Assembly (NCBI GenBank): GCA_963594675.1
Contig: CAVBGA010000187.1
Span: forward strand, 19-64,018
From: Lachnospiraceae bacterium
GTDB lineage: Bacteria; Bacillota; Clostridia; Lachnospirales; Lachnospiraceae
Reading direction: 5' to 3'
DNA length: 64,000 nucleotides
Shown here: positions 9,001 to 54,998 of the stretch, piece by piece
Layout of the letters: every line of letters starts with the position of its first letter
Numbering within the stretch: position 1 is the first letter of the stretch
Made by a program: the position numbers and the translations under genes
Notes under the pieces: generated by a model
What the model was told of the DNA's origin: nothing
Databases searched by the model: none
Seen by the model: the letters and a program-made list of their open reading frames with translations, nothing else

Positions 9001-9084
9001 TATTAAGAGCAAAAGGGAAGGACCGCTCTGCCATCTGGCGGATGCGGCCCCTGTATGAAAAAGGAATTGTCGTGTTAGCTATAT

Positions 9085-9339
9085 TTATTTCAGATAACCT
9101 GCGATTACATAACCGGTAAGGTTAAGGGTTGGGGAATATACCTTTGTATAGGTATATCCGTTTTTGTGGATACCTTTTTGAAGAACTTTTACATAATCTC
9201 CATTATGCAGTCTGGCAATTTCCTGACTCCTTGAATAGATCGGATTCTTTCTAAGAGCCAGATAATTTCTAGTGCCGGATACAATTGCTCCGCCGATTAC
9301 CATTTCCAGTGCCTTGTCATTAATCATTGTTCTCATCAT
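9085..9339 (-). CDS. double-glycine-leader peptide with SH3b-like domain (paralog 1)
   Basis: 84 aa. Leader MMRTMINDKALEMVIGG. The mature part follows an SH3b-like pattern (LALR..P..EIARLHNGDYVKVL..NGYTYTKVY..TGYVIAGYLK). RBS is AAAGGAGAA. By my hand alignment it is identical to ORF 54999-55250 at 55 of 83 positions. Confidence 0.75.
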   Translation of the reverse strand: MMRTMINDKALEMVIGGAIVSGTRNYLALRKNPIYSRSQEIARLHNGDYVKVLQKGIHKNGYTYTKVYSPTLNLTGYVIAGYLK

Positions 9340-9392
9340 AATATTTTCTCCTTTAATGTTTTTCTAAATGTTTTTTGTGTGTGTTTCATTTG

Positions 9393-9452
9393 ATGAGTCT
9401 ATATTAACAAGGGAATCTGAACACAAAAACAGAAAAACCATAAGGAATCCTT
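9393..9452 (-). promoter_or_regulatory. hairpin/T-run plus extended -10 promoter module (copy A)
   Basis: Minus strand reads ATAAGGATTCCTTATGGTTTTTCTGTTTTTGTGTTCAGATTCCCTTGTTAATATAGACTC. The extended -10 TGTTAATAT lies at 9401-9409. The segment is homologous to 54874-54930 and 53395-53450. Confidence 0.5.
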
Positions 9453-9656
9453 ATTTAAGCTTAAGGTAAACTAAATCCTAATAAGTATTTTTTTTCTGAT
9501 TTTCATAAATTTACCTCCATGAAGACAAAATTTATCATATAATCAATGCAAAATCAATATATTGAAGTGAGAGTGCAGGAGTTAAATGTTTCGTGAGTAG
9601 TTTTTGGTGTGTAATTGTGTGTGGATTAACTTATAAAATACTATAGTGAAGACATG

Positions 9657-9823
9657 AAAAAACTCCGGTTGGCATTCCGGAGTAAGTTTCATAAAGGAAG
9701 GAGTGAATCGCTCACTGCCTGGCACTGCAGGAGCGATTCGGTATGAAAAAGAAAATGGTTTTTTTGGATGTTTTCCTTCATCCGATGGTTATACTATACT
9801 GTGAAAATGTGACCACTTTGTGT
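9657..9823 (-). ncRNA. candidate small RNA / cis-regulatory element, copy 1 of 2 (strand tentative)
   Basis: Near-identical copy at 19652-19815, including a 46-nt identical core. On the minus strand it has a -10-like TATAGT, hairpin GGATG-AAGGAAAA-CATCC, a 13-bp hairpin GAATCGCTCCTGC..GCAGTGAGCGATTC, the stretch CACTCCTTCCTT, then terminator ACTCCGG..CCGGAGT plus a T-run. No ORF is conserved between the copies. Confidence 0.45.
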
Positions 9824-9846
9824 TCAAGTCTTCAAGAAAGTGTGAA

Positions 9847-10476
9847 TTAAAAAATCACATTTCCTTCAAAGATTAGACTTTCCACCTGAGTTGTGGAAAG
9901 TTGCTCGATACTTGTCTCAAAAACATTCTGGTTCAAAACAAGATAATTTGCCATATTTCCCTTTTCTGAAGATCCGATGGAGTTCTCCATACCCATACAT
10001 TTGGCTCCTTCTATGGTATAGCCAAACATCATATCTCTGACAGAAAGACATTCGGATTCCAGTTGCCTTTTCTCAAAACAGGAAAGGGGATCCTGGCGGC
10101 TGGCACCGATTTGCATAGCTATAAAGGGATTGGCCCGGTCGATTTCTTCCATACTGACAATATCAGAACTGCAGCTTAGGGAAGCTTTGCATTTAATAAA
10201 ATCATTGAAGGAATAGAAGGTATCAAATCGTTCCTGGCCCAGAAGCTTTAGTGCTTCATCCCCAAAGATGCCGCCGTTCCAGTGAGGGGTGCAGTTGATG
10301 GAAATGCCCAAATCCGCAGCTCTTTTGCGATCAGCCGGTTTGGTGAGCTCACAGTGAAGGAGTTCTACCCTTGTGGTAAAGGCAATACCAGATTCATTTC
10401 TCCTATACCTTTTTTGCATATTCTTTAGGCAAAAAAAGAAGCACCAGAGATTGCTCTCCAGCACTTCTTTGTACAC
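9847..10476 (-). pseudogene. C-terminal fragment of a YtcJ-like amidohydrolase (amidohydrolase_3)
   Basis: Only the last about 175 aa resemble the C-terminal third of about 540-aa amidohydrolases (..GISINCTPHW.., ..YTIEGAKCMGMENSIGSSEKGNMANYLVL..FEGNVIF). The N-terminal about 35 aa are non-homologous read-through. There is no room for the missing N-terminal part before the LOG gene. Confidence 0.6.
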
Positions 10477-19651: not shown

Positions 19652-19815
19652 AAAAAAACTCCGGGTTGAGAATCCGGAGTTAAAAAAGGAAGGAGTGAAT
19701 CGCTCACTGCCTGGCACTGCAGGAGCGATTCTGTATGAAAAAGAAATTGGTTTTTTAAAGATGTTTTCCTTCATCGATGGGTATACTATAACCCTTAAAT
19801 GTGACCACTTTGTGT
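19652..19815 (-). ncRNA. candidate small RNA / cis-regulatory element, copy 2 of 2 (strand tentative)
   Basis: Same architecture as 9657-9823. It lies in the divergent intergenic region between the MATE gene (start 19507, minus strand) and the LysR gene (start 19995, plus strand). Confidence 0.45.
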
Positions 19816-19994
19816 AGAAATTCTCAATAAATTATAAACTAAAACTTCCCATACCCAAAATGGGATTCGTACCTTGAAAATTCAACACACCTTATCGGTG
19901 TGGGAAGTTTAAGCTACGTATGACAATCGATTCTTGCGAATCAGGTGTGTCTGAAGTACAATTAACAAAAGCGATGCATAAATGGAGAAAAAAT

Positions 19995-24364: not shown

Positions 24365-24529
24365 AATAGGTATTCCTAATTGGCATGTTATAAACTGGTT
24401 AAATTATAACATAGCGTTAGAAAATCTTCAATCGATAACTTGTTATCAATAGCTAATTCTGTAAAATAAATATCGTGTTGTGCATGTTTTATTTACTATT
24501 ATGCACAAATATAATAATTCCATAACGAA

Positions 24530-24712
24530 CAGCAAGATATGTTTTGCCTAGAGTAAATTAAATGGGAAATCGGTGTGAGTCCGATACGATCCCGTCACTG
24601 TGATAGCGAGTGAACAGCAATATGTCACTGGAATCGAGTTAGAGAGAGCTTTTCTGGGAAGGCGCTGTTTACTAGGACCTTAAGTCAGGAGACCAGCTTA
24701 TCTTGTTATAGC
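24530..24712 (+). promoter_or_regulatory. cobalamin (AdoCbl/B12) riboswitch
   Basis: Conserved elements AATGGGAAATCGGTGTGAGTCCGATAC, CCCGTCACTGT, GTCACTGG, GGGAAGGCG and the B12 box AGTCAGGAGACCAGC. P1 pairs CAAGATA with TATCTTG. Terminator-like hairpins at 24748-24835 lie downstream. Confidence 0.9.
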
Positions 24713-24938
24713 AGTTTCATACGGTGTATATGAACACTATAGAAAAAGAGACAGACGATGCAAAAGTCACCTGTCTATTTCTATGTGTCAAAGACCCCTG
24801 CATTTATAAAAGCATGAGGTCTTTCTTTATGTTTGTTGCAGCCGGAAGGAGGTTGATTACTATTTTTGTAATTAATTTCGGCAGCAGGTTCGTTGGGGAT
24901 TAAAAAAGGAAGTATTATTTTAAAAGGAGAAGAAACGA

Positions 24939-47941: not shown

Positions 47942-48015
47942 GTCTTCGTAGCTCAGCTGGATAGAGCACTCGCCTCCTAAGCGAGGGGTCAGAGGTTCAA
48001 ATCCTCCCGGGGACG
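47942..48015 (+). tRNA. tRNA-Arg (anticodon CCU)
   Basis: Manual cloverleaf: acceptor GTCTTCG/CGGGGAC (two G-U pairs), D-arm GCTC..GAGC, anticodon stem CTCGC/GCGAG with loop CTCCTAA, and a T-loop TTCAAAT. CCA is not encoded. Confidence 0.85.
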
Positions 48016-54873: not shown

Positions 54874-54930
54874 TGCAGAAACCCTTATGGTACTTCTGTT
54901 TTTTTCTTCAGATTCGATTGGTATTATAGA
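54874..54930 (+). promoter_or_regulatory. hairpin/T-run plus extended -10 promoter module (copy B)
   Basis: GCAGAAACC-CTTATGG-TACTTCTGTTTTTTTCTTCAGATTCGAT, then TGGTATTAT (54919-54927). CTTATGG is 38 nt from the -10, the same spacing as in copies A and C. Confidence 0.5.
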
Positions 54931-54998
54931 CTCATCAAAAGGAACAAGAAAAAAACACACAAAACAAAAAACAAAACATAAGAAAAGGAGAAAACGAA

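Follow-up and report, generated by a model that had tools for sequence, protein, structure and literature searches.

Two similar stretches of non-coding DNA, each of about 200 nt, lie in the same orientation in a 64,000-nt sequence from a Lachnospiraceae bacterium (contig CAVBGA010000187.1, assembly GCA_963594675.1), here called the window. The question raised by this locus is what the repeated unit may be: the gene of a small RNA, the leader of an adjacent gene, or a repeat acting as DNA only. A first-pass annotation, made from the window alone, had read both copies as a candidate small RNA on the minus strand, with a CU-rich stretch complementary to ribosome-binding sites. The comparison with homologues from a second lineage supports the reading of a non-coding, minus-strand small RNA: the two repeats are most likely paralogous genes for an undescribed small regulatory RNA (sRNA) of gut and rumen Clostridia.

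Coordinates of the two units and of their parts are collected in Table 1. As first annotated, the units are closely similar direct repeats, found as such by repeat search, blastn and MAFFT alignment (82% identity over 204 nt), and share an identical core of 46 nt; the similarity extends about 37 nt beyond the limits originally given, upstream on the minus strand. A single 1-nt indel had been reported between them, while the alignment contains several: single nucleotides in hairpin 1, in an A-rich linker, in the terminator loop and in the T-run, and 5 nt between seed and terminator. The conserved upstream block ACACAAAGTGGTCACATT has two exact matches in the window, against 0.06 expected. Both copies are present in contigs from the same species, with 98-100% identity. 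The minus-strand RNAs fold more stably than shuffled sequences (z = -5.3 for copy 1, -4.3 for copy 2). The units are not coding: indels shift the frame on both strands, and the plus-strand open reading frames (ORFs), 35 and 7 codons long in the two copies and 7 to 35 codons throughout the family, are not conserved, as already remarked in the first-pass annotation. Its description of the surroundings of copy 1, located between the C-terminal remnant of an Amidohydro_3 gene and an 84-aa double-glycine (GG) leader gene, is also correct; copy 2 is flanked by a MatE gene and a divergent LysR gene. In short-read Logan contigs of the window species (loci L018, L019 and L024) the sequence starts exactly within the 46-nt core, which indicates that the duplication fragments the assemblies of this species at both loci.

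No family of Rfam 15 matches the copies, nor their homologues in loci L042 and L050, at either gathering or permissive (E up to 10) thresholds; the sole overlapping match at E up to 10 over positions 9300-10000, Ref84, covers the terminator alone, with 19 bits versus a cutoff of 52. No similar sequence was found by blastn in plasmid and phage collections, and in viral contigs a 16-mer of the core and a gapped pattern gave chance matches only, at gene starts featuring a Shine-Dalgarno (SD) sequence followed by ATGAAAAA. Relatives were obtained by a metagenome scan, with a pattern in which only the flanks of hairpin 2 were fixed (CTTTTTCATAC, 28-42 nt, CACTCCTTCC): it returned 17 loci, two of which, L042 and L050, contain genuine homologues, two copies in each (nhmmer E from 1e-7 to 2e-5). 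The syntenic loci L056-L064 were then collected through the gene located between the two copies, and all loci of this second lineage carry two copies. The lineage corresponds to Chordicoccus-like Lachnospiraceae (one source gives the organism as Chordicoccus sp.), which are common inhabitants of the bovine, pig and chicken gut and also of bioreactors and wastewater. When all collected sequence was searched with a covariance model of the core (R1), only the known copies were recovered, plus a marginal match at 9011-9072 of the window.

The gene order is the same throughout the second lineage: a hemerythrin/PAS gene (+), RNA a (-), a gene for a hypothetical protein of 384-433 aa (+), RNA b (-), a PstS-like gene (+) and a hemerythrin gene (-), followed by sulfite/nitrite reductase, polyphosphate kinase and PAP2 phosphatase genes. 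Both copies of L042-L064 point towards the 3' end of a plus-strand gene, of opposite orientation, and cannot therefore be 5' leaders. The hypothetical gene between the two RNAs (proteins P0122-P0127) shows 67% DNA identity, with many gaps, and is far less conserved than the adjoining RNAs; only the C-terminal quarter of its product is common to many, otherwise unrelated, proteins.

Ten distinct sequences are available, from the two lineages plus paralogues, and share one layout on the minus strand: an upstream region, hairpin 1 with a purine-rich loop, an unpaired UUUCUUUUUCAUAC, hairpin 2, an unpaired CACUCCUUCC, and a terminator followed by a U-run. A third hairpin, between CACUCCUUCC and the terminator, is found in the Chordicoccus type only. 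The distinct sequences, each folded alone, generate the same series of hairpins (z = -3.9). The two single strands are invariant in ten out of ten sequences, and UUUCUUUUUCAUAC stays single-stranded when the two window copies and all five Chordicoccus-type sequences are folded at minimum energy. Stems, in contrast, differ between lineages and between paralogues: in the position of hairpin 1 the relatives feature an unrelated hairpin of 8-12 bp, again with a purine-rich loop, and in their hairpin 2 apical pairs are changed on both sides, with the loop motif UGCCAG retained. When the structure is imposed on alignment A4, 85% of the cells are paired, a share which falls to 31-44% if the partners are shifted by 1-3 columns; both sides are changed in 12 pairs, and the covariation score is 0.202, versus 0.114 in shuffles, none of 500 shuffles reaching 0.202. 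Covariation had been proposed as a check on the annotated hairpins: the homologues keep the architecture, with stems which differ in sequence yet pair, and pairs kept by compensatory changes, the mark of a structured RNA, are thus found, within two lineages plus paralogues.

Most single parts described in the first-pass annotation are also in place in both copies, namely the -10-like TATAGT, the 13-bp hairpin, the CU-rich strand (DNA CACTCCTTCCTT) and the canonical terminator. Hairpin 1 is found as described, with 5 bp, in copy 1, and is reduced to just 4 bp in copy 2; the proposed complementarity of its loop with the CU-rich seed is not conserved, the loops of the relatives being AAGAGA or GAGAGAUA. 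The terminator stem of copy 1 has 7 bp (5 G-C), followed by UUUUUU, and that of copy 2 has 7-8 bp, followed by U7; the latter was skipped by the terminator scanner, its loop being 9 nt long. In eight of the nine folded sequences the terminators have stems of 7-14 bp (up to 17 bp in L064_b) and 6-8 U, and L042_b has a weaker U-tract than the other folded sequences.

Three features had escaped notice at first: the second conserved single strand UUUCUUUUUCAUAC, the periodic hexamers of the upstream region, and the UGCCAG motif in the loops, including that of the terminator. The motif is found in nearly every hairpin after the first, on seven unrelated stems, and is lost only in the terminator of copy 2 (the loop sequences are listed in Table 1). 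The second loop base of hairpin 2 is G in the window and C in the relatives, and the terminator loop of copy 1, AAUGCCAA in the window, is AAUGCCAG in most strains. Wherever UGCCAG opens a consensus hairpin loop, the adjacent stem is uninterrupted and has 4-17 bp; as a control, 98 TGCCAG sites elsewhere in the collected DNA were analyzed, of which 12% have a stem of at least 4 bp, and none a stem of at least 7 bp. A literature search for the loop motif returned only plant and animal microRNA papers.

Sequence comparisons suggest selection on the unit. L042 and L056 share 94-96% identity in the RNA cores and 94-98% in the promoters, without gaps, versus 67-88% for the flanking genes and 39% for the next intergenic stretch. 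Within the window species only three variable sites fall inside the RNA, two in the terminator loop and one in the unpaired 5' end; the 40 nt beyond the terminator are highly variable.

Upstream, conservation starts about 65 nt before the -10-like hexamer, which reads TATAGT, TATCCT or TAATCT, with only T1, A2 and T6 constant. No -35 element is present: its position is occupied by an array of four hexamers, spaced by 11 bp, which ends 9 bp upstream of the -10-like hexamer. In the relatives the hexamers are TTCACA / TTCAAA / AACACA / TTCACA, and the third and fourth are conserved in every lineage; in copy 1 the array was read in register from the alignment, the scan having chosen TGAAGA, one base along, with a score of 19/24. 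Promoters of Firmicutes controlled through PHO boxes feature TT(A/T/C)ACA-like hexamers, with an 11-bp periodicity, in place of the -35 element (PMC11870197). The definition of a PHO box included an even number of repeats, located at about -20 to -60, and the absence of a -35. The units described here resemble such promoters in having four hexamers of this type, with the same spacing, in the -35 position; moreover, in the relatives, the array faces the divergent PstS-like gene, and arrays also precede ppk and the PAP2 phosphatase gene. When scored against TT[ATC]ACA, the arrays of the Chordicoccus-like loci reach 21/24. In L056 (54% GC), five arrays score at least 19/24, versus 0.4 expected, and they precede both RNA genes, the PstS-like gene divergent from RNA b, ppk and the gene for the PAP2 phosphatase. 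The PHO-box-like arrays upstream of the last three genes suggest that the L056 locus is a Pho-regulon island.

In the relatives, the first hexamer doubles as the right half of a palindrome, TGTGAA-N4-TTCACA, centred near -62. The Rex operator is an 18-bp palindrome, TTGTGAAnnnnTTCACAA, which overlaps the promoter or lies downstream of it; L042_b agrees with this consensus at all 18 of its 18 positions, and the remaining relatives at 15-17. In L056 the only two perfect TGTGA-N6-TCACA sites are those of these palindromes. No N6-spaced palindrome is found in the window, the spacing being wrong in copy 1 and the palindrome absent in copy 2, and it was therefore treated as a secondary signal. As the main promoter signal, a CRP/FNR or Rex palindrome was rejected, being not conserved in the window copies. 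The palindrome may arise simply from two back-to-back hexamer arrays.

From these data a function may be proposed. We infer transcription from the U-run terminators, in the same orientation in all ten sequences (weaker in L042_b), and from the conservation, which starts at the upstream array; strand, ends, regulator, targets and mode of action are likewise inferred. The unit would be a stand-alone gene on the minus strand, producing a structured RNA of about 130-140 nt (185-210 nt in the relatives). Its putative promoter combines a weak -10 (TA...T) and no -35 with TTCACA-like hexamers, 11 bp apart, in the -35 position; since this layout is used by regulators of the OmpR/PhoB family, expression is probably switched on by such a response regulator, for example PhoP. 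In the Chordicoccus-like lineage, this could plausibly be the regulator of the phosphate-starvation (Pho) system. In the predicted RNA, a 5' hairpin, possibly protective, is followed by the U-rich strand, a hairpin, the CU-rich CACUCCUUCC, similar to the 16S rRNA anti-SD tail, an extra hairpin in some sequences, and the terminator. Action would most likely be in trans, with the CU-rich strand pairing to purine-rich ribosome-binding sites of target mRNAs and blocking translation; the U-rich strand may lengthen the pairing across start regions of the AUG-AAA-AAG type, and the UGCCAG loops of the later hairpins could provide a second conserved contact surface, for RNA or protein. The balance tips, by a small measure, towards this reading of a stand-alone, response-regulator-driven sRNA, repressing translation through its CU-rich strand and endowed with a second surface in its loops. 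In more general terms, the data support a trans-acting Firmicute sRNA, of a known kind and of an undescribed family, characterized by a promoter of the regulator type and by a loop motif whose iteration is unusual.

A number of observations weigh against this proposal. The consensus promoter scan called no sigma-70-type promoter at the copies. Unlike PHO-box promoters, the arrays of the window copies match at 19/24 only, with no phosphate-related genes nearby, and this score is at background level: 24 such arrays are present in the window (41% GC), versus 10 expected, which leaves the conserved hexamers 3 and 4 as the basis of the regulator-site assignment in the two copies. Only two lineages are available, equivalent to about 3-4 independent comparisons, so that covariation is supportive, and not statistically decisive. 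The known diversity is narrow: an 18-nt core probe, searched in 185,579 species with one genome per species, gave 11 matches, all by chance, the two from Firmicutes being located in coding and GC-rich contexts. None of the RNA runs searched for the window species contains this species. For the relatives, RNA data consist of unstranded assembled contigs only: in the best-covered sample one contig spans the whole locus at about 24x, with RNA b at 32x and no specific enrichment, and the other runs are sparse; a 15-fold excess of RNA contigs over RNA b vanished, when a matching reference strain was used. Target prediction within the window ranked only strong SD sites, and no specific target, and none of the collected loci contains a site complementary to both conserved blocks. 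Finally, the two most conserved blocks also suit the plus strand, as an SD-like sequence and as AUG AAA AAG AAA.

The recurrence of the loop motif leads to a different view, according to which the RNA is mainly a sponge or decoy, whose UGCCAG loops titrate an RNA-binding protein, or kiss a CUGGCA loop elsewhere, the CU-rich strand being secondary. We consider this unlikely, although not negligibly so. The presence of the motif on seven unrelated stems, terminator loops included, and its conservation in both lineages are what such a sponge would display, and iterated loop motifs are a hallmark of the sequestering RNAs CsrB/RsmZ and EutX/Rli55 (EutX: PMC8934654), which resemble the units described here in carrying the same loop sequence on several hairpins of one RNA. 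Yet no partner is known, or encoded next to the units of both lineages, conservation is at least as strong in the invariant single strands as in the loops, and the terminator loop of copy 2 is devoid of the motif, so that one such loop is left in this copy. Known sequestering systems do not fit. CsrA sponges feature multiple GGA loops, while here GGA is found only in hairpin 1 of the window (AAGGAA), the corresponding loops of the relatives being those reported above; a CsrA-sequestering RNA was therefore rejected. In ANTAR sites, hexaloops carry A as the first base and G as the fourth, usually on a dual hairpin which overlaps a terminator (PMC8934654). An ANTAR target was rejected as well: the loops are of 8-10 nt, A1/G4 are found only in the 8-nt ones, and G is at position 5 or 6 in the others. 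A mimic of the tRNA-Gly anticodon loop was rejected for the variability in loop size. Doubtful, too, is a bolder version, in which iterated UGCCAG loops (2-3 hairpins), beside a mimic of the 16S anti-SD, would make up a new RNA recognition module: the RNA would then be a sponge or hub induced by a response regulator (phosphate or redox), capturing an RNA-binding protein or a CUGGCA loop, and not a simple antisense repressor.

The plus strand may also be regarded as the relevant one, either because the RNA acts in cis, as antisense to plus-strand transcripts of the same intergenic region (SD-like sequence plus MKKK mini-ORF), whose processing or translation it would control, or because the plus-strand product is itself functional. 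The two most conserved blocks do read AAGGAAGGAGUG and GUAUGAAAAAGAAAA on this strand; all genes adjoining the elements in the Chordicoccus-like loci have plus-strand orientation, and their transcripts may cross the elements, one RNA-derived contig spanning the stretch. This explanation is nonetheless improbable: the mini-ORFs (7, 7, 10 and 35 codons) have nothing in common past MKKK, the SD-like block is about 40 nt from the AUG, no conserved sequence is found upstream on the plus strand, where an A-run precedes the hairpin of the terminator, and copy 2 has no upstream plus-strand gene to provide read-through. A type I toxin-antitoxin system was rejected, the plus-strand peptides (MKKKLVF, MKKKKVG, MKKKRFMKLL and one of 35 aa) being neither conserved nor hydrophobic.

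In the window, each copy, with its terminator, is upstream of a minus-strand gene, and could in principle be its 5' leader or attenuator: the MatE gene for copy 2 and the GG-leader peptide gene for copy 1. The corresponding start codons, however, are 145 nt (MatE) and 315 nt (GG-leader) past the terminator, and inspection of the folds revealed no evident antiterminator pairing; no same-strand gene is present downstream in L042-L064; close MatE homologues from related organisms (76-82% identity) are found in other contexts, with no such element; and the 84-aa gene has its own 5' region, repeated at a paralogue which is not accompanied by the unit. A leader function is accordingly very improbable, and riboswitches and attenuators were rejected on the same two grounds, gene position in L042-L064 and folds.

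Very improbable, too, is a role at the DNA level only (a dispersed repeat, a mobile-element remnant or a cluster of protein sites, with incidental hairpins): assemblers do break contigs within the 46-nt core, and the plus-strand loops, CTGGCA, resemble the -24 element of sigma-54 promoters, but substitutions preserve base pairing, the copies are two per locus at fixed, syntenic sites, and terminal inverted repeats, target duplications and transposase are all missing. A plus-strand sigma-54 promoter was rejected in any case, as the GG-N10-GC spacing suits the hairpin of the window only, and not those of the relatives. The possibility that homologues might turn out to be ends of mobile elements, raised in the first-pass annotation as a reason to abandon the RNA, did not materialize: they are fixed intergenic units, syntenic across species. 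A miniature inverted-repeat transposable element (MITE), or another mobile-element end, was rejected on these grounds and for the lack of matches in the plasmid and phage collections.

The stand-alone sRNA, which remains the preferred reading, may be compared with two known systems of Firmicutes. LhrC1-5 of Listeria are multicopy, response-regulator-dependent RNAs, whose UCCC seed is exposed redundantly, by a hairpin loop, a single strand and the terminator loop; they target SD regions. The family described here is similarly multicopy, would likewise depend on a response regulator and target SD regions, and has a motif repeated in hairpin loops and in the terminator loop; the motif, however, is UGCCAG, and the strand CACUCCUUCC, in place of UCCC, and no sequence similarity is found. 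RoxS/RsaE, from Bacillus and Staphylococcus, are again Firmicute sRNAs of about 100-200 nt, with unpaired pyrimidine-rich regions directed against G-rich ribosome-binding sites; a further likeness is the Rex-like TTGTGAA-N4-TTCACAA, which the relatives carry among hemerythrin and sulfite/nitrite-reductase genes. Transcription of RoxS is driven by ResDE, a two-component system of the OmpR family, and is also controlled by Rex (PMC5419742). Unlike in RoxS/RsaE, the seed is here UCCUUCC, plus a U-rich block, in place of CCCC motifs, and neither sequence nor Rfam matches are found (no RsaE at E up to 10); UGCCAG loops are not present in RoxS, whose Rex site is downstream of the promoter, while the palindrome found here is upstream, and misspaced or absent in the window copies. 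Membership in the RsaE/RoxS family was rejected, for lack of both a model match and CCCC motifs.

Table 1. Location of the two repeated units, of their predicted parts and of neighbouring features. Positions refer to the window, unless a locus is named.
Feature	Position	Strand	Basis or remark
Copy 1, whole conserved unit (putative upstream regulatory region, RNA, terminator)	9657..9860	-	nhmmer E=2.7e-50, six-sequence profile
Copy 2, whole conserved unit	19652..19852	-	nhmmer E=6.8e-45, six-sequence profile
Imperfect palindrome TGTGA-N9-TCACA, copy 1	9841..9859	.	relatives TGTGAA-N4-TTCACA
Four hexamers, 11-bp spacing, copy 1: TTCACA / TTGAAG / AACACA / GTCACA	9808..9846	-	candidate OmpR/PhoP-family response-regulator site
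Four hexamers, copy 2: TTTATA / TTGAGA / TACACA / GTCACA	19800..19838	-	
-10-like hexamer TATAGT, copy 1	9793..9798	-	relatives TATCCT or TAATCT
-10-like hexamer TATAGT, copy 2	19785..19790	-	
Hairpin 1, copy 1: GGAUG-AAGGAAAA-CAUCC, 5 bp, purine-rich loop, 5' stem-loop	9766..9783	-	predicted fold
Hairpin 1, copy 2: GAUG-AAGGAAAA-CAUC, 4 bp	19760..19775	-	alignment of copies
U-rich single-stranded block CCAUUUUCUUUUUCAUACC, copy 1, conserved	9740..9758	-	unpaired in minimum-energy folds
Hairpin 2, copy 1: 13 bp with one bulge, loop AGUGCCAG	9705..9739	-	predicted fold
Hairpin 2, copy 2: same as in copy 1, loop AGUGCCAG	19697..19731	-	predicted fold
CU-rich single strand CACUCCUUCCUU, complement of AAGGAAGGAGUG, copy 1	9694..9705	-	DNA CACTCCTTCCTT located by pattern
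CU-rich single strand CACUCCUUCCUU, copy 2	19686..19697	-	DNA CACTCCTTCCTT located by pattern
Intrinsic terminator, copy 1: ACUCCGG-AAUGCCAA-CCGGAGU + U-run	9657..9683 (hairpin 9662-9683)	-	terminator scan
Terminator, copy 2: ACUCCGG-AUUCUCAAC-CCGGAGU + U7, loop motif lost	19652..19680 (hairpin 19658-19680)	-	fold
Possible degenerate third copy, or chance match: CUUUUUCAUACAG, different GC-rich hairpin with CGCCAG, then UCCUUCCCUUU	9011..9072	-	nhmmer E ~0.009-0.04; covariance model 20 bits, E=0.058, from flanks only
Loop motif, hairpin 2 of the window			AGUGCCAG
Loop motif, hairpin 2 of relatives			ACUGCCAG
Loop motif, hairpin 3 of relatives			(U/A)CCUGCCAGC
Loop motif, terminators of relatives			A(U/C)CUGCCAG or ACUGCCAG
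Small-protein gene, 83-84 aa	9085-9339	-	double-glycine leader
Paralogous small-protein gene, 83-84 aa	54999-55250	+	double-glycine leader
5' regions of the two small-protein genes	9352-9445 and 54883-54976		~94 nt in common (inverted repeat I1)
Amidohydrolase remnant	9847-10476	-	209-aa open frame, profile positions 302-472 of 472
Full-length amidohydrolase gene, same species	L014 972-2624		550 aa, before copy 1
Hypothetical gene between the RNAs	L042 10095-11249	+	384-433 aa
Element of ~155 nt	L050 2498-2655	+	also in L056-L060, absent in L042
PHO-box-like array, PstS-like gene	L056 11614-11651	+	
PHO-box-like array, polyphosphate kinase gene	L056 15459-15495	+	
PHO-box-like array, PAP2 phosphatase gene	L056 17760-17799	+	
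Cobalamin riboswitch aptamer	24522-24715	+	Rfam, 101 bits, E=3e-24
tRNA gene	47942-48015	+	Rfam, 57.7 bits

The possible third copy lies directly past the stop codon of the gene for the 84-aa protein, and may be a decayed copy, or the terminator of that gene, resembling the family by chance. Outside its own species, the 84-aa GG-leader protein has no homologue in a set of 5.8 billion proteins. The leaders of the two paralogous small proteins are MMRTMINDKALEMVIGG and MRTMINEKELEMVTGG, and their bodies show a weak similarity to bacterial SH3_3 domains (E=0.006 and 0.019), below the Pfam cutoff. The second of these genes follows the 3' end of an apparent MATE-type transporter gene, as judged from the C-terminal sequence alone. 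As to the amidohydrolase, it has been called as 192-205 aa in other strains, while in L014 the full-length gene is preceded by a gene for an ATP-binding cassette (ABC) substrate-binding protein, and not by LOG, aminotransferase and DUF1638 genes. The full-length form indicates that the truncation in the window stems from a rearrangement at strain level, which broke the gene internally and is unrelated to the repeated unit.

Other elements were met in the course of the analysis. Inserted just past the terminator of RNA b, L050 and L056-L060, unlike L042, carry the element of about 155 nt listed in Table 1, bounded by an inverted repeat (ATTCAGCACCCC...GGGGTGCTGAAT) and with GC-rich internal hairpins. 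It is found in dozens of short, differently flanked contigs in two metatranscriptome assemblies, with word depth up to about 1130, versus about 24 around it; this pile-up, with differing flanks, indicates a multicopy dispersed repeat, MITE-like or similar to repetitive extragenic palindromes (REP), in the Chordicoccus-like genome. A homologue of the 404-aa flanking gene, 42% identical, has no copy of the sRNA unit beside it. In the window, the cobalamin riboswitch is about 5 kb from copy 2, and unrelated to it; the tRNA, with anticodon loop CUCCUAA, is probably tRNA-Arg(CCU).

To our knowledge, almost nothing has been reported on regulation by sRNAs in Lachnospiraceae and related gut and rumen Clostridia, and these organisms are not known to have the well-studied RNA chaperone circuits. 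The family, whose known distribution is narrow and limited to two lineages, is a concrete candidate, open to experiment: two paralogues are present per genome, and in the second lineage they are conserved above the surrounding genes. The predicted functional surfaces are the anti-SD-like seed, the U-rich strand and the iterated UGCCAG loop, and the promoter layout points to control by a two-component system. Since the Chordicoccus-like carriers occur widely, both in bioreactors and wastewater and in the gut of cattle, pigs and chickens, material for such tests should be obtainable. If the link to Pho or to redox control is true, the family would represent an sRNA arm of that response in anaerobic Firmicutes.

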